DNA of 64,000 bases from Candidatus Omnitrophota bacterium (GTDB lineage: Bacteria; Omnitrophota; Gorgyraeia; Zapsychrales; JANLHA01), in NCBI GenBank assembly GCA_031423615.1, contig JANPFV010000055.1, positions 474 through 64,473 of the forward strand, given 5' to 3'. A program made the translations under genes and the position numbers. This document shows positions 24,401 through 57,505 of this stretch, piece by piece; within the stretch, counting starts at the first letter, position 1; every line of letters begins with the position of its first letter. The notes beneath the pieces are model-generated. The model was not told the DNA's origin. It ran no database searches and saw nothing but the letters and a program-made list of their open reading frames with translations.

Positions 24401-27400
24401 CACCGGCGCTATCCCTATAAAGTGCACCCTCTTGGCGTTGCGTTTATCTTATTTAATTCGTTTGGGGTGAGAGTCATTGAACTAAACGGTGCTGCACTGG
24501 GTCATGATTTTGGTGAAGATTCCATCATAAAATATCTCCCTTACAGCGCAGATTATGTCGACATGAATGAATTGCGCAAACAATTTCATGCTAGGGCGCA
24601 TGTGACCCCGGTTATACGTAAAGCGATTGACCGTGCAATTGAGAATGAATTCTTAATGCTTCGAATCAAGGGCGTCAACCCCGATTCCTACTTAGAAACC
24701 GTTTATCGACGAGCAGCCTTTCACCCAATGGGTGAAAAATTTCACTCGTCGAGGTCTCGAGGGGAGAATCATTTTCTAAGTAGGAATTTGGGCGTCAATT
24801 TGGATGTTGACTTAACCATGAAATATATTCGCGCTATGACCAGAACAAAAGACCGGGACTTGTTTTTCGTGAAGATTCAGAAAGCTGGGGCCGACAGCCG
24901 CCACATTTCTAATGCTTTGAAAAGCAAATTAGAAAAGTGGGCGCAAAGAAGCATTGAGCGCAATATGACCCGCTATAAAGCCGGGCTTATTCGGATGGGT
25001 GATTTCTTGATTATGCTAAAGCTCGCCGACATTATTCACAATATGTTAAGCGACATCGATACCGACGATCCGAAATTGATGCAGAATCATCTTTTGGGTA
25101 AGAACGGGGTTGTGCATAAATATCTTGATGAAGTTGAACCATCCACCGGCACCAGTTTCTTGCATGCCTTGTCACCGCGCTACCGGATCGCCAAACTCTA
25201 TTTCGGTTGGGCGTTTACAGAAGCTCTGCTTAAAACATGGTCAAATATTCCATTGGCGCAGAATATGAGCGCCGCCGAAGCCTTAAGAATTGTCAATCTG
25301 ATCGATCCGGATTTTGAATTGAACACTGAGTTAAGCGACGGTGTTGCTCGTGACGTCTTTTCTTACGGCCAGGCTTACTTTGAAAGAGAAATTACCGGTG
25401 CCCGTGCTTCCAGTCCCGTGCAGAATACGCAAGAGTATTTCCAATTCTTAAATTCCTTAAATTTTCCGAATCAAACCGTTTGGATTATGCATATTGGCGG
25501 GAGAGAAAAGCTGTTTTCGTTAGATAGCATGCCATGGGAGATGAGGGTTATTTATACGCCCCGCCTTAGGAAATTTGATCGTATTGACATCTCTCAAAGT
25601 TTTAACATTGTGACAATCGATGAGCCGCAAATGGAATCTTTCCCAGAGGTGATGAAATTTGCTTTCCGTGTTTTGGCCCAGGACGGCGTTATTTTAATTC
25701 GTTTAGCACCAAATCAGTCCCAAGAAGACCAAACGGTTTTCCAAGAAGTCTTTAAGACCTATGGCCGGGCATTACAAGAAAACCATCAGCATTTGCAATT
25801 TGCAATGATACCTCTGGCGGATCAATATCGAATGTATGCTTGGCACATAGAACTAAAACAACCGGTGGCGGCACCGTCGGTTTCCCGTTCTCGGCAAAAT
25901 AACCTTATGACCCGGCGAGAATCTCTCCAAGTGCTCTCTTTAAGAGTGAAAGTATTTGCCTTAATGCTTTTGGCGACATGGTCTGAGCCCGCCGGTCAAA
26001 GAGAAAGGCCAGCGGAACCGACTTTAAGAGAAAACCTTCCTGCGGTGCTGACGAGAAATAAAGAAGACTCCGAGAGCGCCTCCAGCCCGGTGATGGATCG
26101 CCGACTTTTTGGTATCACATTATTCGCAATGCTATCTTTAAGAGGGGACAGCGATCTGCAAAGCCGCCTCTCTCTCTTGGAACAGGAAAAAATCGAAAAG
26201 ATTTTTGATCTTCTTAAAACGGGTGGACATTTGACAGCGCAAGAACAGGCTCGCTTATCCGCTTCCTATATTTTAGACGCCATCCGCAAAGGCGACCCGG
26301 CGGAGTTATTAAAGAAAACCGGAAGGCTGTATCCGGCTCTCTTCAATCATGTTTCTTATTTGCAAGTCCGGGGGAACAAACAGATCATTATCCATTCGGA
26401 CGCTTTCAATGATCCCGCGCATTTATTGACCGATCTTATTTTTGGTTTGGAGCAATTCTTACAGGAAAATGCGGCGTTAAGTAAAAAAGAAATTTTTGTG
26501 CAAGCGGTGGGGGCGACCGCGCGGGTTTTACGCCACATCATTGAAAGCAAAAAGTATCCTTTGTATGAAGAAGATCTCAAGCAATATGTTAAGGAATTTT
26601 ATGGACATTATTTGTACTTTAAATCTTTGCCTGTGCCGCGTAAACCGGGCGGTCTGAGCGCCTCCAGCTCGTTGACGGATTTGCCCGGAAAATCCACAAC
26701 GAAGCTCATTGTTATGCTACGCGATGTTGCTGCTTTTGAAGCATTGGTGGAATTCTATGTGGATTTTCCTCCGGTGAAGCCGGAATTCAAATCTTATAAT
26801 CCGACATTCCCTCCTATGAAGCCGGAATTCATATTAAATTATCACAAAAAAGGACGCGCGATATTCCAGATTTTAATCAGCCGTTTGAATAATGACCAAG
26901 ATCGTGCAGAAATGGCTGCGGCCTATAAGCAAGCCGATCCGCAGAGTGAACATTATTTCCACCTTTGGATGAAGAGGGTTTTTGATTCGGCCGAACCGTC
27001 CGTCAAACCTCACAATGGCGTTAAATATGCAGGCCTTTCTGCCCAAGGAGATTCTTCCGCCAACCCACATAACGGGATTAACTACCAAGGCGTTTTTAAC
27101 CTAGGAAATTTCTTAGCCCGCAGTCAATTAATACCGAATTGGCACGAGAAATCAACCGCTGATCTTCTTAATGCCCTAAGGAAGGTTGCTTCTTTTGCCG
27201 CGCGAATGAAAAAAGTTTATTCGGCCTTTCCTTCCATGAAGCCGGAATTTGTATCACGTAATGAGCAAGAAGGACAGCAAATAGTCCAGGCTTTAAGCAG
27301 CCGTTTGAATAATGAGCAAGATCGTGCAGAAATGGTTGCGGCTTTTGAGCAAGCTAAGCGCGACGACAAGGCCCGTCATTTTCATCCTTGGATGGAAAAG

Positions 27401-30400
27401 GTTTTTCAGTCCGCCCAACCTCACAATGGCGTTAAATATACAGGTCTTTCCCAACAAGATAGTTCTTCTCTTCGCGTGTCCGCGCCATCGCAAAATGACG
27501 TTAAAGAAGAAGGCCTTTCTGATCAAGGAGATTCTTCCGCATCCAGCCCGCTCCAAAATCATGCTTTGCCGCGGGAGGGTTTTGCCGTGGCCATGTTAAA
27601 AGAAATTATCACCGCGGGTCCTTTGGCAACGGGCCGTTCCGTCGTGGTCGTAGTCGAAGGCCAGACATGGATTCTCCTTGCGACAAACAGCCAAACCGCT
27701 TTGAACTCTCCTCTTACTCCTCTTGAAAATCTTGCCCAGAATTTAGCCGGTTTATTTACTTTTGCCAGTGCCAGTTCGGCTTTGGTAGATGAAGCGCAGG
27801 CTGTGGCGGTAAAAGTACTGTCCCCGGCAGAGGCGGCTTGGGCCCAGCGTACGGTAGAGTTGTTAGAAGGGTATAAAGAAGCGGGAACGGTTGTGGCTGA
27901 TGAAACCTTCGCCGCGGTATGGTTAATGGGCCTTTCGCCATCGTTCATATTGCCTGCGTCTTTACAAGGTGCATCTTTATCCGAAATGACGCGGCAATTT
28001 TATAAAGTCCATCATCTTGTTTATGCCCCGCGGCTTCATCCCAACGGTTCGCCTCTTCATCAAAGGGCGGTTTCAACATGGATGCAGGATTTTATTTTGA
28101 ATATCGCAGACGATCAGGTTCTTTTGTTTGCTTTTGCGGAAATGATAGCCACTCTCGAACAGGCCGGGCAAGCTAGCAGGGAGGAACAGGAATATTGGGC
28201 GCGAAGGGCAAATCATATTTTTGGGAACGTGGCCAATGTTTTACGCAGGTCGGATATTGCGGCCGCGATTCGTATCGCCAGTTTAAAACTCCTTGAGCCA
28301 GAAGAACATAAGCGCACAGAAAGATTAAATGAAAAAGTCACCCGTATGAATGAAGAAAAACGCCATACCTACTTGGCCCGACAGGTTTATAAGTTAAAGC
28401 AATATTTTGAGGCCCACGGCGTTGATTTGCATGGCATTAAATTTTATTTGCGGGTTAAAGATGCCGCATCCTTGCTTAATAAGCTCAATCGTCGCCAATT
28501 AACAATTCAAGAAATTGTCGATCTCTTCGGCATCATGATCATAGTACCCGACGAAGAACACAATATAACTCTTTACGCTATTATTGGTTTATTGTCAGAT
28601 TTGCAAGGAGATAACGTTAAAAACCATAAGATTCAAGAGGCGCCGAATTTAATTTTTGTGGAAGCTGACTTCCATGAACGGCTTGGCAATGATAGCTGGG
28701 AGATGGTTATGAAGGATGTCAGGGGCAATCCTTTTGACGTTACGGTGATGGATGAAACCAATTACGGAAGATTTTTGACGAACGCAGAGTTTGCCTATTG
28801 GAAATTCGCCGCCCGCAAAGATCCTGCCCTCAAAGAGCAATTATTCGATAAATTCCCTAACTTTAAGCCCAGCGGCGATTTGGCTCGTGATTATCTCGCT
28901 TTGCGTCATCTGCTCCGTAACAAGATTGCTGTACGTGTTGTGGTTCGGAATAGTAAACAAAATAATAGCTTTGCTGTTTATCCCCTTCTCATGGAGCGTA
29001 AAAAAGTGGACGGCCGCGCCGTAGGTCCTGTTCCTGCTGACGCCGCCGCTTATTGGCGGGCCAACATGTTAAATGAAGAATACAGTTACTCATCGGAAGC
29101 GGTTTTATTTGTTAATGCCGGTCAAATTGTCGTGCAATTAAAAACCGCCAGATTAAGGGAAAGCACGCCATTAAAAACCGGCCAGGTTTTGCATTTTACC
29201 AATGGAACATCATCGGCCAATTGGAACGAGATCAGGCATAGGGCGACCACTACCCGGGCTAGGTTAATGGCTGAAATTGTTGACCTTAATTCTAAACAGA
29301 GAAAAGCATTGGCGCAAGAGGGTCAACGAAGATTGTCCCAAGAAGCCGGTCTCACCGGAAGTGCACAGGAAATAACCGTACTGGAAGAGTGGAGTAGTGA
29401 TTCCCATATGCTAGTCATTGGGGAAAAAGAGAATTTTCTGCAAGAACTTTATATGGCTTTTGCCAAGGGTTTGATTGATTCCCATGAACTTAACCGAATG
29501 TTTGAAGCCGCAGGAAGCCTGCTTTTGGCCAAAGCGCGGATTATCAGTGCGACCGGCGATAAAAAGAGTGATCTGCGCATAGAATCAATATTAAGTCTTT
29601 TTCCGGAAGTTCCTGTGCAATATACCCGCAACATTGTTGTTTTTGCTCAAGCCATCGGGCGCGGCTTAGTCAATGTTAAGACCATCAATGAAAGATTAAG
29701 TTTACCAGGCTTGAGAGTTTCTATTCAACACGTGTGGATGGCGCCCTCACCTGAAGTTGTCAACAGGACGTCTATACCGGTTTGGATTTTAATTGTTACC
29801 GGAGATTATAATCATCATGGTTTATTTTTACCGATAACGTCTATTCTGTTTGAAAAGGGTATTAATATTATCGAGATTCAGACCTTAAATAATAAAGGAT
29901 TCGGCGCGCAATTTATTCTTGATGAAAATTGCGATGGCCAGGCTTTAGCAATGTCTATCGAGGCCATCGGCCGCATTCCGGATATGGCTGTAGATGTTGC
30001 GAGGAATTATCATCAATTAGTAATGAGGGTAAACATCCCGAATCAGCCGGGAACTTTAAATACTCTTTTACGTTCGCTATTAGAATCCTACCCGGTCGAC
30101 ATTCAATCTCTACGCGCCAAGGTCGGTCCCAATAATCGAGATAAAAAGAAATATGCCCAGATCGATATGGTCCTTAACCTTCCTCCCGAAATCAAAGAAT
30201 CTGACCTTACCCAGACGATTATCCAGACGCTTGACCAAATTAAAAAGGAAAAGGGAAATGGGAATGGAAAGGGAAATGGGAATGGGAATGGGAATGGAAA
30301 GCGGAATGGCCGCCCGGTTAAGGGCGAGAATTTCTCCGCCTCCTCAACAATAACCGGAAATAATCCAAACATTATTTCTTACGCTTTGCCTGATTTCTGG

Positions 30401-39400: not shown

Positions 39401-42400
39401 AACGGTGAATTAGACGGTTTTAAAAAACGCCTGGCAGAAATTAATAATTCGGATAAAGATACGCAAACGGATTTGTGGCTGAGGTTCCCGGTAAAATCTG
39501 ACGATGAAAATAACGATTACGATTCAATGTTGCAAGCTATAAAAGAATCGTTAAGAGATTCTGCATGGCATGCACGCGAAACTTTATTGTCGGAAATCGA
39601 AGCTTTAGAGGCTATGCCCGCCGGCGAAGATTTGGCAACGCAAAGAGAATTGCTCAATGACCTTTGGAAAAAAGCTGAAGCCATTGTGGTTTGGGAGGTT
39701 GATGGCGAGGAGTATGATTTTAGTTTATCGCTGTTTTCTAAATTGAAAGTCCTTGAGGAACGCATCGCGGTTTCGGAAAAACAATTGCGGGCCCGCTTGG
39801 CCAAAGGCTGGTTGGGCACCTTGCTTTATGACGGCATCATTGAGCGGACTTTAGAAAAACGCGTGGATGAATTGTTGCGGCATGAAAGCGATGAAGTTAA
39901 GCTGATGTATTTTTTGGCGTATGCTTTTGCAGATAGAATGCCGCAAAGTTTATTGAATATGGAACATATTGCCCGACCGATGGCGAGGGCGATTCTCTTT
40001 CAGCCGTATGGCAATAGAGTCGCTCCTCGGCATTGGAAATGGCGGGAAGTCGCCGCTCTTTTTCCGTCGCCCATTACCGGTGAAATAGCTAATGCTATTT
40101 CCAAACGTGTTGTGGAACTTTCCAAGGTTGATACGAAAACAATTGCCGCGCAAATTTCTCAAGAATTCGCTTCCCCCCCCGTTTCCAGCTGCGCGATAGA
40201 AAGTAGGGACAGACCCTACTTTTCTAATATTCAAACGACCAGCGGGCGTATTTCCGGAGAATTCAATCCGCCGTCGGTTTCCAGCTCCGCATTGGGTGCA
40301 TTATTGGCTAAAGCGCAAGCGATGGAACATGATCGATTATTGCATTTGTTGAGGCAAACCTTTCCTCAGGCGGCAGAGGAGCTTTTGGCGAGAGGACGTT
40401 TAGAAGAAAAGAATTGGACTTCTTTGGTGGCTATAAATGCACGGTTGTATTCATCTTTTGCGGACATAACGGAAGAAATTTTAAGGCTACACAGAATGGG
40501 CATTAAAAAAGTATGGTTGATTGGGATTTTTGCGGAAAGTTTGATCAGTGAAAAGTGCGGGCAGGCCAATTATGACCTTCGGTTAAATTATGGGGACCAA
40601 GAAGTTTATTTATATTTTGATCGGAATAATGACGGATCGATCATTTCCATCGTGAGGGAAACAAAAAGGGGAAGTAAAGATTTGAGCGCAGCGGCATTTG
40701 CCATCCCCGAGCATGAGCCCAGCAGCAAGTTAGGCGGCAGAGAAGAATTAAGAAAATTATTCCAGCGTACGGCTGGCATGGATATTTATGTGGATTTTGT
40801 TCCGCACAGTACATCGGTCGATTCAGCGTGGCTTCGTGATGAAAACATAATGACGGGCGAGGGATACTGGTATGTGTATAAAGATTTATCATCAGAAGAC
40901 CAACAAGCTCTTCACACTTGGGAAGAGGGACGTTATTTATCCGTCGAAAATGCAGGGAAACCCGAGACATGGATTCCTGCCCAAGAGCAATTTATTAGAA
41001 TAAGCGAGAAAATTCTTTCAGAAAATACTGGATACTTCCTCCACCGATCTACAAAATTGAATAAATGGATTCTGATTGTTTTAAGCCGAGATGCGACCAT
41101 GAAGCCGCGCGGGGAATATTTCAATGACATCCAGGTATTAATTGATTTGAGTAATTCTCAAGCGCGGCATGAATCGACCAAAGATGCAGTAGGTTTGGCC
41201 GAGCTTGGGGCCCGCGGTTTTAGGATGGATTCGGCGCAAACAGGTGTTGTCGGAAAGAAGGGCGAAGAAAGAGGGTTTATCGCAACGTGGAGTGATCATC
41301 AAATTACTAATCCTTCCTTAGGTAATAATCAGCAAGAACTCTATGAAGAGATGATTCCTGCTGTCCGTCTAGTGACACCTGATTTTGAATTCTTTGGCGA
41401 AGCCTTTTGGTTTTTTGATGTCTTAGAGCAGAGCGGATTCGACAATTTATTGCAGATATGGGTCTATATTTTAATGTCGCGGAAAAGAGACATTCCCCAG
41501 TTACGTAATTATCTCCAAAAGACGAGTTTGGATGAGCATAACCGACGTATGCACGGATCGATAAGTCATGATGATTCACCCAATTATCGATTTGAGCGGT
41601 TGGCGGATATATTGGCTGTAACGAAAAGATTTTTAACTCAAACGGTGATAACGGTGACAATTCCGGGGAGGGTTCTTTTTCATGATGAGCAATTAGGGTA
41701 TGGCTATTTGGTTGCCGCCACTAATCGCAGAATGGTGATCGATGATGTTGAGCATAAAGATGTCCGAAAGGCCTTTGAAGACATGGTGATCTTGGCCGAA
41801 GACCCGGTTTTAAGACGGGGAGAAATCCATGTTTTCCGCAATAATCATCCGCAAGTCTTGGCTTTTGCAAGATATATTCCGGGACGAGCGATAATAGTCA
41901 TAAGTTATCACGGTGCTTTTATTTCTCGAGCCAAGATTGAGAAGCTGGCTGAGCAATATGAATTAGAGTGGTCATCGGTGGCGCTATTCTTTGAACACGT
42001 TCAGTCGGGAGATGATCACCTGGTATTAAAGAGAGAATTTGATGAAATTATTCAACAAAGTCCTTTGCCAGAGGAGTTCAAGTCAGATCTGACAAGAGAA
42101 CTGCTTAAGGGACTGCAAGGGCAATCCGCTAGGGACTTGCTGGACTTGCGTGACGTTGCGCAGCAGATGGGAATTAGAAATGAGGATAATGCATTTTACG
42201 TATTGCTTGATCGATTAAACGGCGCTGTATTTTTAAGGACAGGTTCGGAATTAGTCAATCAGGGTTTATATGTTTCCTTGCTAGCTAATGAAAGTCATGT
42301 ATTTATGATTGAGCAGGTAAGGGGCGACAATAAACAGATCCGTAAAATTCTTAGAAAAGCGAAGGGGAAAGAATTATCAATTGCAAATATTTATCGTTTG

Positions 42401-45400
42401 GTTAACGACTTTGGCGTAAATGTATCATTTGTACCTACGGGCTTGCTTGCGAAAGCAGAAATTATCAGATTGCTTATTCAGCAAGGGGGAAATGTACAGG
42501 CTGTCTTGGCAATAATGGGAAACAATGAATCCGAAATCGATGTTGACGAAAGCCGTTCCTCATCCTCGATAGAAAGTAGGGACAGACCCTACTTTTCTAT
42601 TGGCAATGTCAGAATAAATATCCGAGGTCCCTATTTATCACCAGAGATCACGTCTCGTGTTACTTCCAGCGGTGACTATTCCTCTTCGGCAGTCCAAGCG
42701 ACAATTGTTGCTTTTATCTGGACTGTCCTCGTCTATGGTTTTACCAACTGGCTTTACCGACTGGCAAAGGCTCGCTTGCAAGAGGCTAGAGATATCCTTT
42801 ATGGTTTAAATGGGAAATACATGTTAAATGAACTTGAGAAACGAGGACTTTTAAACGAATTCAACGAATCATGGTTGAGCTATCAAGCATCAGAACTTCT
42901 CTTAGCAGACATTGTTTATGAGGAAACACATTTATATGATGGCTATTTGTTCATGTCAAAACAAATCGCTTTTTATTTTGTAGGATTCTTTGCGTTTTTA
43001 GCATTTCTCACCGCATTGAATAATCCAACGGGCTTGGCGTATTTTATAGCTGTCCCCAGCTGGTTTATTTCTCTTATGGCTTTGATCCATATTCCTCGTC
43101 ATGCTTATGAAAAAGGAGTGCGGTCACTGCAGAGAATTGCTGAATACAACGCCCGTCGGACCGTTTGGAATGATGAAAATACAATTGATGCAGTAAGCAA
43201 TCCTGATCAATCAGCCTCCTCGTCGCTGTATCTGATAGAAGATTCGTATTCCAAAATTATTCCAACATCTCAAAGGAATCTTAGAAATGCTGGTCATAAG
43301 ACAGCGTATTTTCTGACGCGTTTTTCTACCGTCGATAAAAGCCAGCAATGGGGTTCAGGTTCCGCTTCCAGCGCGGTGCATGAGAATTACACTGCTCTGC
43401 AAATTGAAAAAAGAAGGATTGATTGGGCTATTGCTGTGGCAGAGGCAAAAATAGCCCTTGCTCAACAGAAATTTGTGGAAGTGGATGAAAGTTTTCCGGA
43501 AGGAGAATTTCAAACATTGCGATACCATGCTTTTAAACTGAGCCTTTTGCTTGAGCACTTTAACAGGAGGATCCGCAAAAATCAAATGGGAGGGGCATTA
43601 ATGTGGGCTGGTCTTATTGCAGCCATATTTAATAGGAGAAATCCCAGTGCTCGACTTGACGCCGTGATTGTGGGGTTGATAGGGATGGCGTTAGAGGCTT
43701 TGGATTGGTTTGGGCAATGGTTGGAAGAATCCGTTCTTAAAATGGTACAACCCCAGCGGGAACTTGGTTGGGGGTACCGTCAACTTTATGCTTTGGAAAA
43801 AATGCGATTAGATGCGGTCGGCGATTTGGGTGAGTTACGCTCGGAAGCCGAAACCATTGAGAATAGAATTTTAAAGTATAAGAACAAACTCATAAATTGG
43901 CTGACCGCTCAAAATGAAATCAGTGAGATAAAGGTTTACCTTGCGTCATTTGTGGCTACTGGGGCGATATATTATCGAACACAACAGAATCAAAAAATTA
44001 TTATTGGACTGTACTTACGAGCGAGCATGGCCGCATTAAACAGTATTATTACAATGCAACGCAGTGGTGAAAATAATAATGAATTTGTTCAAACCGTTGA
44101 CACGTTCCTTAAACGGTCAATGGCGGGAATCATTGATCAGGATGACCAAATCGATGGTTTACAATTGATTTTAGTGGTTAATGAGGTCTACACTGAATTG
44201 CTCACACCTTTATCGCAATTACAGGTTCTTGCCCAAGCTGGACAGATTTCTGAGTTTGTTGTCAATGACCACGGCATCGATCTTTTTGCAACTTTGGCTC
44301 GTCATGGAATCACAACCAACGACATGACTTCTGACCGATCGTCCTCGTCTTTAGACGAAATAGTGACAGGCACTAATTTTTCTGGTTTTTCTTCGTCTAA
44401 ATCTCCCGCGGCCTCGTTGTCGGTTAAAAAATCTGTGCGATGGAACAAGGTTGTCAAAAGTAGGGACAGACCCTACTTTTCTGACAAACAAGATTCGCCA
44501 GAGGATGGAGAAAAAACGGTTTTGAATCCGGTCCGTTCTTCTTCGTCGATTGAACAAGGGAAAAAGCGTTCGGTCATTATCCCCACCTTTGTAAGTTCTT
44601 ACAAGCGGGTTTGGCGTTTATTAACATCCATCGGTGTTCCGGATTCTATACGGCCGAAAATAATTTTGATTCCCTTGGCTTTTGTTGCCTTGGTTTTCTT
44701 TGCGGTCGTAGGATTGTTCGGCAAGATTACAGATTTATGTTTTATCAAACAATTTTCAGGTGGGATAACGGATGAACAGCATCAAGGGAATACGGAAAGA
44801 AAATTTGCTCAGTCTATTTTGGCGTTTTGGCAATTTCTTACTCAACCGCTCACCGGAATCATGAAACAGGAATTAAATCTGCGCCTGCTTCCCGTCGTCG
44901 CCGCGTTATTCTTGGTCTCCGGCGGGTATTCTTTTCTCCCGATCTTTTTATTTTTGGCGGCGGGGCTTCTTTTGATAGGCTTTAGCAGAATTAAAATGGA
45001 TACAGCACGGGAGCTAACTACGCTCTTGCCGGTTATTATCGCGGTCAATAATTTGGCTGGATTGGTTCTTTTTGCCGTCCTGTCATTATTTTTGACCCAC
45101 CCTATCATTTTATCTGTGGGTCTAGGTGTGGCTTGGGTAGGTCTTACGGGATTGCATATTTTTATTTTAGTAAACCGGCAGAAATTCCTCGATACGTTAA
45201 AAAAGTTTGACCGTCAGTATGCCAATAGTAATTTACAACATCTCAGTACCGTTAAAATTGTCGAAGGTCAGGGCCCGGTCATTATTGCGGTGCATGGGAT
45301 TGGCCATAATGCAGTTATCGACTGGATGGTTTTGCGGCTTTTATTTCCCGGGCGGCCGATAGTCGTTCCTGTCAACTGGCGTTCCGATAATACGATGAAA

Positions 45401-48400
45401 GAATTTTTGAGCATGAATTTAGAAGAACAAGAGCGAAATCTTTTGATAAAACTAATCGGTGAAAAAGATAAAGCGATGCGCGCTTTGCTCTTTTTGGCTT
45501 GGATGATTGGTTACTTTGAGAGAAAAAGCGGCCAACCCGTTATGATGCTGACCTATTCTCTTGGCGGACGCAGGCTCTTGTCGCTTTTTAGTGACAAGGA
45601 TTTTGCTAGAACCGTGAAGGAAAAGAGTTATCCACAAAAATGGCTTAGGCTGGCGGAAAGTATCAAACGAGAAGTCATCACCGCAATTCCCGTCGGAAGA
45701 GTAGGATCATCACGATTGCTTCATTCTGTCCAGCTTATGGGCATGGTCATTGTAGCAAATTTGTTGGAAGCCACTTTAATCATTATTCGTATGCTCATTA
45801 TGGCCAATTGGATGATTAGGATTTTTGAAGCCGGCCGTCTTCGTCATGAGACCTACGATAGCATTGTGAAATATTCAACCAAGCAGAGTTTGCGGGTCCA
45901 GACGTTATGGTTGTTAAGGAAAATAAGTTTGAGCCCGCGAAGAATTAAAAAACTTAAACAAATGATGAATGGGATAGCGCTTCATATTGTCGTTGGAGAA
46001 ACCGATCACGTCACGCCCCTGGACACGAATCGTGTTTTTGCTGAAAGAATCGGTGCTACTTTCTCGGTCATTCCTCACGCGCATCATAAGGGTGTGATTT
46101 ATTCGGTCCAGTATTTAAAAGTTATTAGACAGCTGCTCAGTGATGAGGAGCAAGGCCCGGTTGATATTGCAGAATTGCTGAAAGGTTTGGTTATAGAAAA
46201 TGTGACCTTTGCCCAACAAGGTCAACAGTACAACACGGAATCCTCAATGTCGGATGCCATGGCTGGCGTCGTAACCACGCTTAATGAGTTTGCCGGTTCT
46301 TATGTCGAAGCCCTTTGGCCAAAGAGTTTGACGCTGAAAGTTACCGAATCTTCTTTTTTAACTCATGACCAATTCGTTTATTTGGAAAACAGCCAGACCG
46401 CGATTATTCATGCTGATTTCTTTAAACTGGCGCCTAAAATGCGAAAGGGTATTTTGTACGGTGTGTTCGTCGGACAAATCGCTCGGCAAGTCGAGAATGA
46501 TTTTCAAATGAGAGTAGCTACCGACCGGTTATATGACGCCATTGATGAGCAGGAAAACGGAAAATCAAATTGGGATTCTCACTCGGCCTTTTTCGCTTTG
46601 AAAAGCGAGTTGAAAGAATTAAAAGACCGCATATGGACAAGGGTCCACCCGGTTCTTTTGCCGCCGGTGGTAAAAGTGCAGCGGGAATATGATATGGATC
46701 AATATATCCGCCATCACCCGCCTTCTCGTCTTTCCAAAAATCATAACACCGACGTCTCTTCCTCGGCCCTAGAAAGTAGGGACAGACCCTACTTTTTGCA
46801 GAAAGTAGTGGCAGGCACTAATTTTTTTAGCTCTTCTTCTTCGATTTATTCTTGCGCTTCTTCATCGGTGGAAGAACCTATGCAGTGGAATAATTTTGTG
46901 GGTAAAGAAGCCATTTCCCACGCATTAAGCGAAGTGACCCAGCCGTTAAGTCTGGAGGACCATTTATTGAAAACCGTACCGCAAGATTATCAGCGAAGCC
47001 GACAGAGATATGCCAGGAGTCATCAGAATTCTGATCAAGGATATAATAGTGCGCTAATTAAGGAGTTTTTGGATCTTTATGAAATCATGATAGGACATCC
47101 AGGGGGATGGACGATAGAGCAGTTATGGAATTTGTTTTCCCATATTCAAAAAGCCCACCCGCGTTATATAAATTCTAGAGAATTCCTGGTTGAGATGTTT
47201 GTATTTTTTCAGAAACAAAAATATCCTTTTGAAAGACAAGGTCCCTTGTGGTCATTGACCGGGCCCGTGCAGTTACAGCTCAATATTATATTACCTCCTC
47301 GGATCGTGAATGGCGCAGGCTTGCGCAAATTTCGTCTGGACGTCAAATTAGGAATAGAGGATGCGGCAAAACGTTTAGGTACTTCCGTAGTTAGTTTGAA
47401 AAAGGCCGAGAACCAAAAAGGGCCGGTGCGATTTAATGATCTTTCAATGTGGCCGCGAATAGTTGAGCAGTATGGGTACGACAAGATGGCGGTGTGGTTA
47501 TTAATCGCTCAGTTGCCCTACGAAATTGCTATAAGACGCAGTACGCTGGGGCAAAGATTTGCGTTGGTGGGATTGGCAAACGGAAAAACGATGGAGCAAT
47601 ATGCAGAAATACTGGGTATCCATAGAACCGAGTTACATTTAATCATTGCCGGTAAGAAATTCCCTCCTCCGGAGGTTTTAGACCGCATGAACTCCTATTT
47701 TGGTATCTCTGATCAAGATCTTTTAGCCCCAACGGAAGGAATCGTTGTTGAGGGATGGCCTTTGAACAAAGCGCTTTTGGAGATGGGAAGCAAGATTAAG
47801 ATTTTCTTATACCCCAGTCTTTATCAAAGGATAGCGACCGCCCGATCCAAAGATATTTGGGTGATGTTGACAGGGCATAAAAAGGATGAGGCTTTGGCAA
47901 TGACCTTACCGCACCGACGACTAGAGCTTTGGCGTCTTGTTGTGGGTCTTACTGTCCTAGAATTGGCTGCTCAGATGCAAATAAATAACGATACATATTA
48001 TTCCCATATTAGTGGTGAGATAAATATTCCAGAAATACAAAAGATAAAATATGAAGAAATTTTTGCTCCCGCGACAAGAGCAGAACTCTTTGGTAACGAA
48101 AGTCCAACCGTAAAAAGTAGGGACAGACCCTACTTTTCTAATAATTCTGAAGTTTCTTCTTCGACGATTAGTTCCGCATTATTTATAATAAACCAGATTA
48201 GGGCGTTGATCCTTATCAAAGCAATAAGAGCTGTTTTCGCTTCTCCGCTTCTTTATGCAATTTCCCTTCTGTGGCCAATGTTACCCTTCTGGTATTTACT
48301 TGCGGGAGTGTTCCTGTTGTTAATGATTCATGGGTTTTACCGAAAGCACACCACACATTTTTTCCGTATCAGAGAATTCTTCGTCGAAGTGTTGATTGGG

Positions 48401-51400
48401 CGTTTGATAAGGAGCATAAAGGAAAGCCGTCAACAGAGAATTATAATTCATTCCGCCGGGGCCGCTGATTTTAAAGAAGCGGTTTCTATCGCAATCGCTA
48501 TTTTAGAGGATTATAAAAACCATCCGGGAACATGGAACGGCGTTGATCCGCAGAACAGTGTCGTGATTTATGCAACAGAAGGTAGTGAAAGATTATTTGC
48601 GAAAGGTTCGACTCTTGTATACAGCATTGATGAAGTTTGGTACAACGGGCTTACCGGTGTCGAGCGGTACGATTATTTTGATCGGCTTGAGCGGGATGGG
48701 AAAGAATATTATATTGCCAAGCCTGTTATTCAAGAGATGATTCGCCCTATCAGGGCAGATTTAGAAAATGTTTCCCTTCTTGAATCTGTCGATATCGTCT
48801 TGTTGCTTCATGCAATGCATTTGAATACACCGGCCAAGATAAAAAAAATCGTCGGCAATCTAAAAAGCTCATTGAATGATCAGGGTGTTTTTATTGTGCG
48901 GCATGGTCATTGGGGCATTCCTTATAGAAATATCTTAAAAGAAATCTTTCACGACGTTAAGGCCAAAACTTTATTCCACCCACGCGTGCATTATGAAAAT
49001 TCCCCCTATGACAGCGTAAATTTATTTGGTTGGGAAGGTATTTGGCTAATCCCGCTAATTCTGATATTAAAATTAGTTTTGAAAGAGGCCTCTTATCAAA
49101 AGTTAGTTGATCTGAGCCCGAAGGGCATTGAACCGTTTGAAATCTATTCTTACCGCGAAACGGATACGGAAAGGAAAAGTAGGGACAGACCCTACTTATC
49201 TAAGAATTCTGAAGTTTCTTCTTCGACGATTAATGACGGGGCAAAGGAAAAAGTAGGGTCTGTCCCTACTTATTTGGCGGTATTTTCAAATGAAAGTGAG
49301 GGAAATAGCTTTGGCGATTTAGGCGTCGTCGTTGTTCGTTCCTCCGAGCTTGTTGCTGATAGAGCGGGTAATACTTCAAGCTGGTATTATTCGCAGGTCA
49401 TTCAACATTTCATTGCGAGCGAGACGGGAGTATCACTGCCATCTCCTGTTATTAGATATAATCCAATTGAAAAATTATTGGGGTATTTAGATGAAAATGC
49501 CGCAGGTCGCAATCGTAAAGGCAACGCTGACGGTGTCATTTCAACAGAAGTTATTTTTTATAAGTGTGAGAATCAGCGTGGCGAAGCCACGTATTCATTA
49601 AAAGCAACGATTCGCCAAGAGGGACTGAAATCGCCAGATAGAAATTGGGAGATGATAAAAGCAAATGAGGTAGGATTCAATCAGCTTGGTGCACTATTTC
49701 TTATTAGAATATTGGGTCAAATGCGATTTCAAGAAACTCATTATTTAGGAGAAGGTCAGGGTTTACAGTCGTTGGGTTTTCTTATGAAAGAAACAACCGT
49801 TCGGTTAGAGTATGAACGAATGCGAAATGGCATATTTGAAACGAGAGTGTTCATCGACCTTGATCCTCTATTAGCAAAATATGCTAATAATAGAATTTCT
49901 TCCTCCGCCTCAATAACTACCCGACATCCCGATTTATCTGCCTCGTCGGCGATTTCATTGCTCCATTTTGCTGCTACGGATTCGCATCCTTTATTCGGCA
50001 TTTGGGCGAAAGGGTTAAGCGCCCGCGATGAACTGATCTTCGCGGCCCGTCAATCAGGGTTTTTAGGACACTATATTCAAGACCGCCTCGAGCATTCTTT
50101 CAGGGGCCACATCGGAAATATTTATCAGCCGCCGCAAGCTGACTATCTTGTGATGTTGAATCTTTATTGGGAAGGCGTTCGAGCGAATGTGACGCAGCAT
50201 ACCTATGGTGACGCAGTGTATCTCTGGCGTGAATCCGCAGCGGGATATGAGTTTTTGATGTTGGATTACGGGACGGGCGTTATTAATCGCGATGGCAAGC
50301 CGGTTGAGGATATCAGTCAAATTTTCAATTTAAAGTCATACCGCCAGGGCGGGTATGCCCCGGACGGTGTTGAGCGTGGCGGCGGCCAGGGTCTGGGGAC
50401 TAAACATGTCTCTGATTATACATATTTGACACGATTAATTTCAGTCAATGCCGGACGAGTCAGGATCGTTGAGAAAGCTGTACCGGGTTCTACGCTATTC
50501 TCACGGATCGCAACGAAAACGATCCAGACAAACTTTGACTTGACCGAGCTGGGGATTGACCGTAAGAAAGTGGCTGGCGTTATCGTCCAGGGATTTGTTC
50601 CTATTGAAGAAAAATTTTATAGTGGGAGATTCTCCCCGGTTACAAAAGACAGCATTTTGGCGGCCGTTCATACAGAGAGCGCCCTGCCGCGAATAAGGGG
50701 TTCCTGGCAAATTCCTTGGGCATCAGGTTTAGACCGGTTGAAAGCTGGTGATGCCATCACGATTATTTATTATCACCCAGCTGAGAAACAGCAAGTCGTG
50801 GAGATGAATGTTACATTGAAGTCATTGCCGTTTTGGGAGGGCGGCCCGATGTTCTCTATCGAAGGCGGACGCATTTTGCACGATAGTAAGCTCACGTATG
50901 TAAGAGCGCCCAAAGGCGAAAGAGAATTAAAGGGCGGCTTCGATTTTCTTAACGCCATCGCTGCTTTAGATATTAAAAGAGGGGATCAGGTCATTATTCG
51001 GTACAATGATACTATTATGATCGACGAAAAAGTGGAATTAACCGGTACTATCCGTGCGGTTCCGGCGCCGGAGAACCAGGGCGTTTTTGAAATTGAACAC
51101 CATGGCGGCGTATTGGACATCGGGCCAACTCATATTAAAGAATTTGTTAATGTCGGGAAGACACCGACAGGCATTCATTTATCCGCCGGTTCTTCTTTAA
51201 TCACCCCAAAGAAAGTAGGGACTGTCCCTACTTACTACAGGGCTAGTTCCGGACTAACAAAAGCGCAGAGGGAGCGGATTGAAGTTAATTATCAAATTAC
51301 TTTACGGAGAATTCCGATATTTGGTATCGAGTGGGCGGGGGATTTTAAGCGTGATTTTGCTGGTGAGGATCCGGAAATCACCATAGCTATTTTAAGGAGA

Positions 51401-54400
51401 TTGATCGCTCTGGGCGATCCAGCGATTAATAAAGGTGTCGCGTGGATCCTGCAAGATCCATACTATTTTGGACATAATGTTTTAGCGACGATTGATGAAA
51501 AGTACGAGGCGGGAGGGGACATCAACCGGTGGCTCGGCGAAAGACACAATATAGGTATTAATGCTGCAGTTCTTGATTTGGTGCGATATGTATTCTTGAC
51601 GGAAACTCCCGGTGCAGCCAAACACGCCCGCGCCAAGTTTATTTTGGAGGCCCAATATGGTTTTAATAAAATTGCGGGGATAGGCGGCCTGCCCGCATTA
51701 CTAAGAAATCCGCGCAAACTTTACGGCGATGTGTCCGATATCACCGCTATTATGCCAAAAGCCCGCCGAGTCTTGGACGAAGACCTAGGTCTTAATTCGA
51801 CGCAGATTGTTTCACTTCCGACCCAATATGGTTTTGAAATCTATGTCGTTTATCTTGGCGCACAACCCACGGGCAGTTTCAAAGTTTGGATTGCTTACGG
51901 GATTATTAAAGCGCTCCGGGACAACCCGAATATTGATACGATCATCCTCGCTACGACGGGAAATCAAGGTATTGCCAATTCCTATATCGGCCAGATATTA
52001 AGTCAAAAGCTTGGGCGCCCAATCAAGGTCATCATTTATACCCCCTACGACACACCGTCGGTCAAGATTGACGCCATGGAATCTTATGATGCAGATGTTC
52101 GCAGGGATCCTGACGTTAAAAATTATGACCAGTCGGTCACCGTTGCGAAAAGAGCATATGAAGAAATAAAAGACCATGCTTATTTTGTCGATCATGCGGG
52201 GGCGGAGGCGCTGATCTCCTATGCCGCTCTCGGGGACACGATCCTTGATACCTTTGAATCAATGACCGGCAATTTGCAGGATACCGCGATAATCGGTCAA
52301 ATAGGCGCGGGAGGGCTTTTAAGCGGGGCTGCGGCGGCAGCGAAGTTCCGTAGTCTCACGACACTCGTCTTCGGCACACAAAGCCTTTTGACCCGTCACG
52401 CTTATGAATCGTTTGTGTGGGGAGAGATCAGAAAATATGTTTATGATAATCAAGCCCTGATTCGCTCAACCGGCATTGACACCAAAGAATTAGAAAAGCT
52501 CGCTTTTGAAGTTTTACGGAAAACATTAGACGGCATGTTCCTCGTTGATGAGAACAACATCGATGCGGCGATCAGGCTGTACCATCGCAGCGGAATCATC
52601 GCCGAACCTGCCGCCGTCCTCCCGTATTTGGCATTTGTAGTATCCCGTCGAATTTTGCAGAGACTCGGTGTTAAGAAAGTGCTTTTGTTGTCGAGCGGGA
52701 GCAATATTTCACCCGCAGATCATGCGCGTGTCATTGCTTCTGAAATAAATAAAATAAATAGGGACGGCGCCTATTTATCCCATGTATCCGCGGCTGTTTC
52801 CTCCTCATCGGCGGTTGAACGCAATGACGTTCTGACGAAGTTGACGGCGCGAGCAGTGGAGGTTGCCAGACAATCTACGGTTTCCAGGTTATCAGGACTG
52901 CCAAAAGTCGGGGCATTGGTTGTTGATTGTGATGGGAATATCGTCGGCGAAGGGTATAACAAAGAGTTTGGCGGCGATTTGCATGCAGAGCATGCGGCGA
53001 TACTCAGCGTTGTTCACAATTATTTACGAACACGACATGATGATTCAGACAGAAAAATGGTGTCCATATTAGCGATTTCAATTGTGATCTGGCCATACTT
53101 AAATCGGCGCGAACGTGGATATGAAAGAAACTTTGAAGATTTAACGCGTCGTTTCCTCCAGTTAGCAGATCAGACGGAGTTGAGTTTTAATGATCTCTCC
53201 TTAATCGTTACAATGGCTCCTTGTACTCGATGCTCGGCTCTGATCGGTAAACTTGGGTTCAGGTCAGTCTTCTATCCGGAGAATTCTTATCCTTCGCAAC
53301 GGGGTCTTAGTATTCTTGAAAAAAGTGGTGTAACCACTTTTGGTCTTCCTGTTGAAATTGATCAGGATCTTCAGGGTTGGGCGTTTAGATTATTTAATCG
53401 CTTTCCGTGGATATACAAAACGAGCCATAAGTTACTTCGTCAGTTGCGGGGTAATAAAGAAGGAAATGAAGATCGTAGGAAAAGTAGGGACAGACCCTAC
53501 TTTCCTGACAATCCCGATGTTTCGTCGTCGGCCCTTGTTCTTCCTGCAACCTTCCTAGCAGAAGGGTTAAAAGTAGGGTCTGTCCCTACTTTTTCGTTTG
53601 TGGCGGAAGTGATCGGTTCTTTGGGAGCTATCCCGCCAGGGGCAACAGTTCAATATAATGGAATGAATAATAGCGGAAATCAGTTTGGATTATTGCCGAT
53701 AAAACTTAGTGCGCAAGGACAGGCGTTCTTGGGGACTTTTGCGAAGAATTCCGGGATCCCCGAACAGGCTAAACTTTTAATTTTTAAAGCGGGAGACGAT
53801 AATTATAATGGGCGCTTTAAAGACATGGGGCCATTAGCTGTTGGATTGATCTTTGATGTTGCGGCACAAAGTCAAAAAGGTTATTTTGACTTTTCATTCT
53901 TATGGCAGATATCAGGAACACATCCAGAATTTTATTTTAAAAACGCCAAAGAAACTTTAAAGAGCAATAGACTTGATAATTGGATTGCATTTCAAATTGA
54001 CAAAAAACCAGCAGTCATTCGTCCATTTGATGGCCAACTGAAAAACAGTGGCTATTTCTTAGAGTTGCTAATTATTTCACCGCTCAGGGATCAAGCTCAT
54101 TCTTATTCTGGTTTTTATAATTTGGAAGTGGAGATGGAAAGCCTGGAAGTTTTTCCTTTTAATGCTCCTGCCAGTGTTGATATGCAAACAGTTATATACA
54201 ACAACAGAAGATTATTGAAGTCCAAGCGCGTTCATGTCATTGGCTCCGGCTTGGGAATCGATGTTGTGATGGCTTTAAAGCATGGGGCCCGGGAAGTCAG
54301 TTATTTTGACATTAATCCGGTTCATCAGCTTATAACAGGCTGGAATGCTTTGTATGCAGAACACAATGGCGAGTTTTCTTTAGCAGGGCGTTCTCGTTCT

Positions 54401-55711: not shown

Positions 55712-55717
55712 AGATCG

Positions 55718-57505
55718 TCAGGTGCGAAAAAACTGCCGGTCGAGAAAATTTTCCTTAAGCTCGATTACGGTGGGGCGTCCGTGCGGACAGGTGAAAGGGT
55801 CGCGGCATTTGAGCAGTTGTTCTTTTTGAAATTCGGCCTGCGAAGTTTTGAGCGCATCGCCGGCGCGGATTGAAGCGCGGCAAGCCCGACGGGCGAGGGT
55901 TGCATGGTCCGCGCGATTGATATTGCCGCCGGCCAACAGTTCCCGTGTCGCGCGGATAGGATCGCTTAACAAAGCAGGACAACTGTGGATCGCGATCGTG
56001 TTTTTGTCGAATTGTGTCGTCGTCAATCCTAATTTTTCCAAAGTCTCCTTGCTTTCCTCCCACGCCAGCATTTCGGCCATTGAAATTTTTAAAAGATCGG
56101 GTGTCAAAAGATTTTGAACTTCCACCTGACCGCGTTGCATTTGTCGAATCAGGGCTTCAAAAACAATCCGTTCCTGCGCCGCGTGCTGGTCGACGATAAG
56201 AAGCGAACGATCGGCTTCAAAAAGTAAAAATTTATTAATGAACGCGCCCAGATAACGGCTACGGGAGAATTTATTGATGAGGCTTTGGCCGGCATTTTTA
56301 AGATCCAAAAAATTTTCGCCGACCGAATTTCCTTCCTGGGGAAAAGTATATTGATCCGTTAAGGCGGTCTTCTCGGCGATGTTGGGCGGCGGGATTTCGA
56401 TTTCGGAAATGGGCGCAAAGGCAATGTCCGGCGAAGTGTTTCTGGCCAAAGCGCGGCGCAGGGCCTCAGCTTCTGGGGACACGGGTTGTTTTTGCGTTAT
56501 TTCCTTGGGTTGGCCGCTCATCATAAGGGTTCTTTCTACCGTATGGCGCAAAAGGGGCATCAGATGATGTTCATCCTTTATTTTAACTTCACGTTTGGTG
56601 GGATGGATGTTGACGTCTACATGGTTGGCCGGGATGGTTAAGAAAAGAGCGAAGCAGGGATAATGATGGGGCGGCAGGATGAGGCGGTAGACTTCATTCA
56701 TATGAAAACCGATGGATTTGCTTTGCACCGGTCGGCCGTTGATAAAAAGAAATTGCAGATCTCGTCGGGAGCGGCTGATGTTGATGTCGCCGGCAATCAT
56801 GTGCAGGGTAAATTCATGCTCGCTGAAATTTTCTTTGATTTCCAGCAAATGTTTAGAGTCGAGATTTAAAGTTTCTCCGACGCGTTCGATCTGGCGGACC
56901 GTGGGTGCCAGATCAAGAAGTTTGCGTCCTTCATGGGTGATCAAGAAACGGCATTGGGGATAAAAAAGAGTATAAGGTGTAATGATGCCAAGGATTTGAT
57001 TGAGTTCGGTGGCGTTGGTTTTTAAGAATTTCCTGCGGGCGGGAGTGTTGAAAAAAAGTTCCTTGACTTCAATTTCGGTCCCGTTGACCATGGCCGCGGG
57101 TTTAAGCGATATTTTTTGGCCGGCCCGGGTATGGATTTCCCAACCGGATTCTTGCTCCGCGGTTTTGCTGCGTAAAGTAATATCGGAAATCGCCGCAACG
57201 CTGTAAAGCGCTTCACCGCGAAAACCCAGGGAATGAATATTAAAAAGATCGTCGGATGTTCTGATTTTGCTGGTGGAATGGCGCTCGAAAACGATTTCAA
57301 GGTCAAGGGACGCAATGCCTGTTCCATTGTCTTTCAAATGGATGAGGGTTTTACCGGCGTCTTTCAAATGAAGTTCGATTGCGGTTGCATTGGCATCCAG
57401 GCTGTTTTCGATAAGTTCCTTGATGACGGACGCGGGCCGTTCGATGACTTCTCCGGCGGCGATTTTACTTATGACATCAGGGGTCAAAAGGTGCACGCGG
57501 TTCAT
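55718..57505 (-). CDS. mutL: DNA mismatch repair protein MutL
   Basis: The N-terminus is 'MNRVHLLTPDVISKIAAGEVIERPASVIKELIENSLDANAT...DNGTGI', the GHKL ATPase motifs of MutL. I chose the ATG at 57505 over the longer ORF start at 57520 for two reasons. It gives the usual ~14 residues before IAAGEV. It also forms an ATGA overlap with the mutS stop at 57502-57504. The stop is TGA at 55718-55720. Confidence 0.85.
   Translation of the reverse strand: MNRVHLLTPDVISKIAAGEVIERPASVIKELIENSLDANATAIELHLKDAGKTLIHLKDNGTGIASLDLEIVFERHSTSKIRTSDDLFNIHSLGFRGEALYSVAAISDITLRSKTAEQESGWEIHTRAGQKISLKPAAMVNGTEIEVKELFFNTPARRKFLKTNATELNQILGIITPYTLFYPQCRFLITHEGRKLLDLAPTVRQIERVGETLNLDSKHLLEIKENFSEHEFTLHMIAGDINISRSRRDLQFLFINGRPVQSKSIGFHMNEVYRLILPPHHYPCFALFLTIPANHVDVNIHPTKREVKIKDEHHLMPLLRHTVERTLMMSGQPKEITQKQPVSPEAEALRRALARNTSPDIAFAPISEIEIPPPNIAEKTALTDQYTFPQEGNSVGENFLDLKNAGQSLINKFSRSRYLGAFINKFLLFEADRSLLIVDQHAAQERIVFEALIRQMQRGQVEVQNLLTPDLLKISMAEMLAWEESKETLEKLGLTTTQFDKNTIAIHSCPALLSDPIRATRELLAGGNINRADHATLARRACRASIRAGDALKTSQAEFQKEQLLKCRDPFTCPHGRPTVIELKENFLDRQFFRT

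Follow-up and report, generated by a model that had tools for sequence, protein, structure and literature searches.

Palindromic hairpin repeats at the module junctions of a giant gene from Candidatus Omnitrophota, compared with REP and REPIN families

Repetitive extragenic palindromic (REP) sequences of the GTAG superfamily are stem-loops measuring 20-40 bp, in which a stem of 5-13 bp encloses a loop of 2-20 nt and an unpaired GTAG tag stands at one end. They occur as single units or as head-to-head and tail-to-tail dimers with spacers of 20-100 bp, and in-frame intragenic copies, with an example from the Planctomycetes-Verrucomicrobia-Chlamydiae (PVC) group in Opitutus terrae, add about 10-30 residues, presumably within linkers (Di Nocera et al. 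2013, PMC3733652). In REP doublets forming hairpins (REPINs), the doublet is the element that is mobilised by a REP-associated tyrosine transposase (RAYT), and singlets are regarded as its decayed remnants (Bertels and Rainey 2011, PMC3116915). Here we describe a palindromic unit, AAAGTAGGG-ACAGA-CCCTACTTT, of which 11 copies lie inside one giant gene on a 64,000-nucleotide stretch (hereafter the window) of contig JANPFV010000055.1 from a Candidatus Omnitrophota bacterium, and we lean towards the reading that a REP/REPIN-like repeat family has come to occupy linkers in the final 15 kb of this gene.

Palindromes within coding sequence are also known from Rickettsia, whose palindromic elements (RPE), reportedly described by Ogata and colleagues in 2000, are said to be selfish DNA inserted in frame in protein-coding genes; the classic RPE-1 measures about 100-150 bp. 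The bacterial interspersed mosaic elements (BIMEs) of E. coli are mosaics of REP units and other short conserved motifs. RPEs also find mention in the work of Di Nocera et al. (PMC3733652).

The unit described here resembles GTAG REPs in several respects: it is a stem-loop of 20-40 bp (stem 9-12 bp, loop 5 nt) starting with GTAG, both single units and head-to-head dimers exist, the latter able to fold into one long hairpin (spacers of 55 and 70 nt in the window), it comprises sub-families with compensating stem changes, and it has in-frame copies inside genes. It differs from them in that GTAG lies within the stem, where it is paired with CTAC, and only the loop gives polarity; furthermore, the window copies are all intragenic and confined to one gene, no RAYT is linked to them, and the copy number in related metagenome-assembled genomes (MAGs) appears low. 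With REPINs it shares the arrangement of two inverted units around a short spacer, which together make a long hairpin whose arms co-vary in one related genome (L002), and pairs are commoner than chance. However, singlets outnumber doublets here (seven to two) and are equally conserved, so that the predominance of doublets expected of REPINs is not seen, the location is coding instead of extragenic, no RAYT is seen, and the spacer is host coding sequence under peptide-level selection.

As with RPEs, the palindromes would survive in open reading frames (ORFs) by in-frame read-through, adding a peptide that is probably tolerated; the sequences are unrelated, and whereas RPEs are scattered over many genes, the copies here are stacked at the module boundaries of a single one. 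Like BIMEs, they combine palindromic units in alternating orientation with a second short conserved motif between or beside them, but this second motif, a serine-rich peptide box (S-box), is translated and also occurs where there is no palindrome, and all of it lies within a gene. Despite their inverted arms, the pairs are not flanked by direct repeats in the window or at the related loci L001 and L002, which sets them apart from miniature inverted-repeat transposable elements (MITEs). Integron attC and shufflon sfx sites are likewise hairpin-capable inverted repeats with an asymmetric centre that separate gene-sized units, but no integrase, no GTTRRRY R''/R' cores and neither separate ORFs nor antisense coding segments are present here, and the element is much shorter than attC.

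Copies, pairs and folding of the palindrome

A search of the window with the pattern AGTAGGGNNNNNCCCTACT, allowing at most one mismatch, returned 11 matches against 0.00 expected from shuffles, all within 40.2-54.8 kb. Eight forward (F) copies carry the loop ACAGA (40202, 42575, 44459, 46775, 48116, 49178, 53483 and 54803), two reverse (R) copies the loop TCTGT (49252 and 53572), and one copy the loop ACTGT (51214). In a profile search with nhmmer, the 11 intact copies reached E <= 3e-9 and everything else, decayed copies included, stayed at E > 0.5; before 40 kb and in the final 8 kb of the window the search found none. According to the ORF list of the window, a single ORF at 143-55711 on the + strand (18,522 codons) houses all 11 copies, and each of them is in frame with it. 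The intact, variant and decayed copies and their neighbouring S-boxes are located as follows.

40198-40224, + strand: F palindrome (J1), S-box VSSCAIE directly upstream and a second one about 25 codons downstream
40147-40338: diverged tandem duplication, 96 nt, containing the J1 copy
42571-42597, + strand: F palindrome (J2), S-box RSSSSIE directly upstream
42613-42639, + strand: decayed copy, 16 of 27 positions as in the canonical unit, read INIRGPYLS, 16 nt after the intact J2 copy
44355-44381, + strand: variant palindrome TAGTG-ACAGG-CACTA, GGG/CCC changed to GTG/CAC, both arms compensated
44455-44481, + strand: F palindrome (J3), only the palindrome common to other copies, no adjacent S-box
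46771-46797, + strand: F palindrome (J4), S-box DVSSSALE directly upstream
46800-46826, + strand: variant palindrome TAGTG-GCAGG-CACTA, 2 nt after the J4 unit, GGG/CCC changed to GTG/CAC
48112-48183, + strand: F palindrome plus S-box block (J5, SRDRPYFSNNSEVSSSTI), between the helix-turn-helix (HTH) and CheR-like modules
49174-49274, no single strand: head-to-head pair (J6), F 49174-49200, S-box 49217-49231, R 49248-49274
49912-49938, + strand: strongly decayed copy, 14 of 27, Ser boxes on both sides (RISSSAS-ITTRHPDLS-ASSAI)
51210-51236, - strand: R-type copy with one loop substitution, perfect 21-bp palindrome, R frame
52753-52779, + strand: decayed copy, 20 of 27, read INRDGAYLS, then S-box AVSSSSAV, in the PALP/deaminase linker
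53479-53594, no single strand: head-to-head pair (J8), F 53479-53505, S-box 53522-53536, R 53568-53594
54799-54870, + strand: F palindrome plus S-box block (J9, SRDRPYFPENSDRSSSAI)

All F copies are read in one codon phase as SRDRPYF, while the R copies, in a different frame, encode KVGSVPT and the copy at 51214 encodes KVGTVPT. The 19-nt core is invariant across all eight F copies, third codon positions included. This lack of synonymous variation, together with the different frames in which F and R copies are read, shows that the repeats are conserved at the DNA level and not as a peptide. In the 40 nt after the core, which four blocks possess, identity drops to 22-27 of 40 positions, with the blocks at 48112 and 49174 as an exception (34 of 40). 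The preliminary description of this DNA had looked to shared flanks beyond the palindrome; an alignment of the copies with 60-nt flanks has about 25 nt shared by all and no extended flank common to them. The bare 27-nt unit has two open frames per strand (no stop codon in two of three frames), whereas the palindrome-plus-motif blocks and both pairs are open in one of six frames, which is the frame used (two of six for the J9 block at 54795), and thus the uniform frame and orientation are explained by the survival of readable insertions alone.

Two of the F copies are closely followed by an R copy, confirming the inverted pairs noticed before: F 49178-49196 with R 49252-49270 (gap 55 nt) and F 53483-53501 with R 53572-53590 (gap 70 nt). 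At least two such close F-then-R pairs among 11 random sites have a probability of P = 0.007 by simulation, and as the pair is also present in the genomes L001 and L002, the inverted pair is a real, recurring unit. The reported kinship of the two spacers holds as well, in the form of a 76-nt block with 70% identity between the pairs, and they do encode serine-rich peptides (NSEVSSST and NPDVSSSA). The related 76-nt block is found 3' of the solo copies 48116 and 54803, too, which had been overlooked. The serine-rich peptide is no property of the pairs: it flanks single copies on either side and exists without a palindrome.

The folding energies predicted for single units are about -12.6 kcal/mol for RNA (z = -4.1) and -9.2 kcal/mol for DNA, and the z-scores range from -4 to -5 overall. 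Folded arm on arm, the J6 pair forms a perfect 21-bp stem with -44.9 kcal/mol and the J8 pair a perfect 26-bp stem with -61.4 kcal/mol (both RNA). Across 28 aligned units, taken from the window and from loci of several other genomes, the stem is paired in 88% of cells compared to 78.8% in shuffles (none of 500 reaches 88%), and both-sided, compensatory changes occur in 6 of the 11 stem pairs; the decayed copy at 52753 also carries a compensated stem change from G-C to A-T. Three of the four paired copies fit a simple terminator-like pattern, on one or the other strand; because only these three fit and all lie inside the ORF, intrinsic terminators were rejected as an interpretation. No Rfam match with E <= 1 was obtained for 39.0-56.5 kb, and a scan for tRNA and tmRNA found none.

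The copy at 51214 reads AAGTAGGGAC-T-GTCCCTACTT and is indeed the perfect 21-bp palindrome that had been likened to a recombinant between a forward and a reverse copy. Its loop ACTGT differs in one position from TCTGT (R) and in two from ACAGA (F), and the copy is read in the R frame; judged from these letters, a point mutation would suffice for its loop and a recombinant origin is unneeded. This mutation may have been templated by the opposite arm (quasi-palindrome correction). What persists of the proposed exchange between copies concerns the F-plus-spacer blocks at 48112 and 49174: these match in 25 of 27 nt as well as in the 34 of 40 mentioned above although the modules around them are unrelated, and some block copying between junctions has therefore probably happened.

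Serine-rich linker motif and module boundaries

The S-box, (D/E)(V/R)SSS(A/T/S)(L/I/V), is present in about 16 copies in the giant protein. The pattern SS[SC][STA][ILV] occurs 16 times against a chance estimate of about 0.5, and shuffles gave 0.2 for a slightly broader pattern; in all, 16-17 boxes compare with 0.2-0.5 expected, a large excess over chance that falls at the module boundaries of giant and large proteins. Of the 16 boxes, twelve have an intact palindrome no more than about 130 nt away, and a thirteenth (52802) comes after the decayed copy at 52753; the palindrome region holds 13 sites between 40184 and 54842. S-boxes stand upstream of the copies at 40202, 42575 and 46775, downstream of those at 48116, 49178, 53483 and 54803, or on both sides, and further boxes at 20660, 20804 and 35126, together with a similar VSSSPV at 24164, have no palindrome nearby. 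Their serine codons vary freely at third positions (0.49 versus 0.19-0.32), which points to selection on the peptide, and we conclude that the serine-rich spacer is a peptide-level linker motif of the host with palindromes beside it. Around the first junction, the duplication at 40147-40338 has 48-nt arms of 71% identity, each encoding EF..PP.VSS.A; the palindrome at 40202 sits in its first unit and is absent from the second.

A related motif, (A/S)SSP(V/I), occurs 18 times in P0130, a giant protein of 7,546 aa (L014/L015; L015 10001-32641), and recurs in large proteins neighbouring it, with seven copies in one of 1,973 aa. Both TCN and AGY serine codons are used in the P0130 motif, of whose 18 copies 16 stand without a repeat beside them. 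On L015, two identical 24-mers AAATGGGGACAGCGCCCGATTATC (24700-24723 and 27646-27669), read NGDSARLS, agree with the decayed copy at 52753 in 19 of 24 positions and lie 2-4 codons from an ASSPV motif, one before it and one after; they form no significant hairpin. Two SSSPV motifs of P0130 (residues 3039 and 3844) are directly followed by a Met and a twin-arginine-like signal, SSSPVAMTRRGFLKL and SSSPVEMSRRGFL, at about 11115-11160 and 13530-13575 of L014, which is mid-protein, and from its sequence context the motif may possibly mark a processing site or an internal polyprotein start. In the literature we found no paper describing this serine-rich motif, and searches for 'SSSPV' and for the exact palindrome sequence gave nothing relevant.

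The nine intact junctions are spaced 1,062-2,373 nt apart, more regularly than under random placement (P = 0.0024). They fall between Pfam domains and are polar, with a residue fraction of 0.62-0.77 compared to 0.54 for the whole protein. An exhaustive search with 47540-51139 returned four separate homology blocks (query residues 13-63, 212-480, 612-790 and 802-1200), which are found separately in other large proteins of 1,000-7,500 aa. The homology blocks stop within 20-70 residues of a copy; no homologue aligned across a junction, and no block spans the junctions at query residues 193-216 or 547-578. An extra block boundary at query residues 790-802 (nt 49907-49943) coincides with the decayed copy at 49912-49938. 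The modules occur singly and at other positions in the giant proteins P0001, P0120, P0130, P0134 and P0143. P0001, the only database homologue of the last 5,000 residues, covers 40406-42517 (module M1, between the first two copies), and the J2 copy starts 58 nt past the end of this shared block; in P0001 itself, neither a palindrome nor a Ser box is present at the borders of M1. Considering the decayed copies at the block boundary at 49.9 kb, in the PALP/deaminase linker and beside 42575, intact and decayed copies together mark module seams, some of which have been hit more than once.

Two further candidates could not be told from chance matches: 51152-51168 (GTCGGGAAGACACCGAC), considered as a decayed copy, and an 'SRDR' that precedes the M1 block in P0001. 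Protein domain repeats were rejected as a source of the palindromes, as a self-BLAST of the giant protein, which is almost without internal repeats, returned only palindrome-adjacent snippets. The G+C content at third codon positions (GC3) is 0.36-0.46 per module, within the gene-wide spread and without mosaic jumps at the junctions, and is uninformative.

Regarding its general build, the giant protein is of a membrane-anchored multi-enzyme type, with an SLT domain at the N terminus (Pfam), a glucan-synthase-like domain and tetratricopeptide repeats (TPRs), 44 hydrophobic peaks resembling transmembrane segments, and HTH, CheR-like methyltransferase, PALP and deaminase domains in the part that bears the palindromes. 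The Pfam family Glucan_synthase (1,3-beta-glucan synthase), whose members are mainly eukaryotic (FKS-type), matches at about 18.3-19.7 kb of the window with E = 1e-66 (residues 1045-1535 of a segment that begins at 15143). The sole real internal protein repeat lies at about 8.2-9.4 kb (residues 2674-3101) and consists of 3-4 units of about 60-145 residues with 33-62% identity, unrelated to the palindromes. Downstream, mutL and mutS follow on the opposite strand, together with an unannotatable ORF of 980 aa; only 6 nt separate the ends of the giant ORF and of the convergent mutL (55711-55718), which leaves no space for a terminator, mutL and mutS overlap by 19 nt, and the MutS of the window was not on record in the orthologue look-up. 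No orthologue of the giant gene was found in databases, and no recombinase or transposase gene was found among those encoded in the window. The protein fits the multi-enzyme giants reported for Omnitrophota (bioRxiv 10.1101/2023.11.21.568195; 10.64898/2026.06.07.730766), two papers in which no word beginning with 'palindrom' occurs.

Occurrence of the repeat in other genomes

Copies in relatives were taken from one genome scan and one metagenome scan. The exact palindrome is present in MAGs labelled uncultured Planctomycetales, with only about two exact copies per related, PVC/Omnitrophota-like MAG. L001 carries an intergenic head-to-head pair about 25 nt after a gene at the contig end, with a spacer of about 75 nt. 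In L002/L007, an intergenic pair stands upstream of phoH (spacer about 30 nt in L002), and its arms bear the same two substitutions mirrored, giving a perfect long hairpin of 25 bp, while the single arms fold poorly. L002/L007 also has a canonical copy in frame (KSRDRPYF) in the variable loop of ybeY, between DVLSFD and GEIIIS, where the nearest homologue, at 64% identity, is 12 residues shorter, which is the only empty-site comparison; the named homologues of this ybeY are from Omnitrophota, an indirect indication of the lineage. A single intergenic copy between divergent genes is found in L003-L005, and at some sites in relatives the repeat lies between co-directional genes. From these intergenic and ybeY copies it follows that the element is neither specific to the giant gene nor tied to coding sequence.

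The low-GC contigs L008-L010 contain a longer version, TATGACAGTAGGGACAGACCCTACTGTCATA, in several intergenic copies. An integron-like interpretation of these contigs was rejected, as the palindrome of about 31-39 bp has no attC cores and is part of longer intergenic repeats. In L010, one copy of the long version (11015-11034/12349-12369) is split by a 1.3-kb insertion sequence of the IS3 family (HTH_Tnp_1, HTH_21, rve) with an apparent 3-bp target duplication, GAC; considered as a possible cognate transposase, this interruption turned out to be an ordinary IS3-family element. The repeat may also have spread horizontally, as the exact 23-mer of the AT-rich palindrome stands at 2235-2257 of L006, a contig of 68% G+C, where it coincides with a gene boundary or lies close to one. 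Two matches to a 17-mer in viral contigs were taken as chance on a rough estimate of the collection size.

Origin of the repeats and alternative explanations

In the reading to which we lean, REP-type hairpin units, single or head-to-head like REPINs, would have become lodged in the hydrophilic, serine-rich linkers between modules. Their persistence would be favoured by a sequence that is stop-free in two of three frames and by palindrome-plus-linker blocks open solely in the frame and orientation in use, an insertion adding 9-35 polar residues to a flexible linker. The pairs would represent the usual doublet form, with arms folding as one long hairpin in single-stranded DNA or mRNA, and the serine-rich spacer would be the host linker motif caught between or beside units. 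Transposition is the route of arrival that we infer, its most plausible agent being an HUH/Y1 single-strand transposase, related to RAYT or IS200/IS605 enzymes and encoded elsewhere, and some copies may then have spread locally by short gene conversion between similar linkers, a process which would account for the near-identical blocks at 48112 and 49174 and perhaps for the local clustering. The kind of element is known, and so are intragenic repeats of this type, while the family, the host lineage and the seam-by-seam stacking in a giant gene appear to be undescribed, and so dense an arrangement is unusual.

Several observations weigh against a transposed REP/REPIN-like family. The window contains no gene for a transposase or recombinase, no such gene could be associated with the repeat at related loci, and Pfam scans of a sample of ORFs from L001, L002 and L008-L010 yielded no RAYT or Y1 HUH gene. 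All 11 window copies lie in one gene and within 15 kb, with no copies in the remaining 49 kb of the window, of which 40 kb belong to the same ORF, and the roughly two exact copies per related MAG do not support a genome-wide burst. Singles are as perfect as paired copies (0-1 mismatch), whereas the REPIN model has decayed singlets, and GTAG is base-paired and mirrored by CTAC in place of forming an unpaired tag. Furthermore, nearly all copies stand within about 15 codons of a Ser box, as do the L015 24-mers with their 2-4 codons, and this proximity of the repeat to the motif, seen in two genes, exceeds what mere tolerance in linkers would predict and is explained only in part. Finally, the palindrome-plus-Ser-box peptide was found in no other protein among 5.8 billion protein clusters.

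An alternative which we consider unlikely treats the palindrome and S-box junctions as joints where the giant gene was assembled or is still reshuffled, either because neighbouring genes were fused across REP-bearing intergenic spacers that were open in frame, or through site-specific or homologous recombination between in-phase palindromes, by which modules would be added, deleted or swapped with the frame kept. The codon phase common to the F copies would indeed keep any F x F deletion or insertion in frame, but this uniformity is already accounted for by stop codons in the other frames. One junction per module at regular spacing, junctions that bound homology blocks, modules found separately in other giant proteins, and inverted arms around an asymmetric 5-nt centre, like the core site of a recombinase, are all consistent with joints, as are the restriction of the copies to the 3' third of the gene and the position of the repeat between co-directional genes in relatives. 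However, the window is without a recombinase gene, GC3 makes no mosaic jumps at the junctions, and in P0001 the M1 homologue is bordered by neither a palindrome nor a Ser box. The palindrome also occupies ordinary intergenic sites and ybeY in other genomes, and the decayed copies indicate that the sequence is not maintained at every seam. The wider proposition that giant multi-enzyme genes of the Omnitrophota type gain, lose or exchange modules by recombination at in-phase linker hairpins seems, if anything, a shade more doubtful.

A role as a cis-element in the mRNA or DNA of the giant gene is given a similarly low probability by us. The hairpins would then serve in pausing of the ribosome or RNA polymerase, in protecting or segmenting the 55-kb transcript or in binding a structuring protein, and the long stems of 21-26 bp would be substrates of RNase III. 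Such a role would fit an invariant core among neighbouring codons that have diverged by 30-45%, a stem kept by compensatory changes, the placement at module boundaries beside a conserved peptide motif in two different giant genes, and the terminator-like pattern of three of the four paired copies; action as RNA elements has also been reported for REPs (PMC3733652). On the other hand, the first 40 kb of the same transcript carry no copies, several junction copies are decayed beyond folding, the related 24-mer of L015 is no significant hairpin, the loops differ between F and R copies, Rfam gave no match, and the contexts in relatives are varied, including positions between divergent genes.

Very improbable is an invertible or shufflon-like switch, in which a site-specific recombinase would invert the DNA between opposed copies, for example 49252-53483 (inversion of such a segment had been named as a check), and thereby vary or truncate the C-terminal part of the protein. 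Such a switch would agree with the exact inverted symmetry of F and R copies around an asymmetric centre and with their position in the 3' portion of a giant gene of the surface- or membrane-associated type, but 40-55 kb contains no long antisense ORFs, so that inversion could only truncate the protein, and inverting 49252-53483 would break the only long ORF there. Neither an invertase nor a tyrosine recombinase gene is present in the window, 8 of the 11 copies are direct repeats, and an R copy is found either at a distance of 55-70 nt from its F partner, which is the arrangement of REP doublets, or by itself (51214).

A protein-level repeat in the form of a linear peptide motif SRDRPYF, to which the loosely similar peptides of decayed copies (NRDGAYLS, NIRGPYLS) and the NGDSARLS of L015 might point, is excluded for practical purposes by the eight F copies without synonymous variation, the different peptide of the R copies and the non-coding copies elsewhere, and so is a mis-assembly across a shared k-mer, since random chimeric joins would not leave a frame of 55 kb uninterrupted across all 11 copies.

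The wider question is how bacterial genes of 50-400 kb are built and maintained, and in this giant gene the linkers carry both a conserved serine-rich peptide motif and a hairpin repeat that is intergenic elsewhere. At a minimum, the locus is a clear example from nature of selfish hairpin DNA that a reading frame tolerates, and the repeat offers a practical marker of module boundaries for giant proteins which are otherwise unannotatable. Should the repeats prove to be seams for recombination or sites of RNA processing, the assembly and expression of giant genes would be directly concerned; working seams would then constitute a bacterial in-frame analogue of cassette capture or exon shuffling, and the cluster in the 3' third would be the growing end of the gene.

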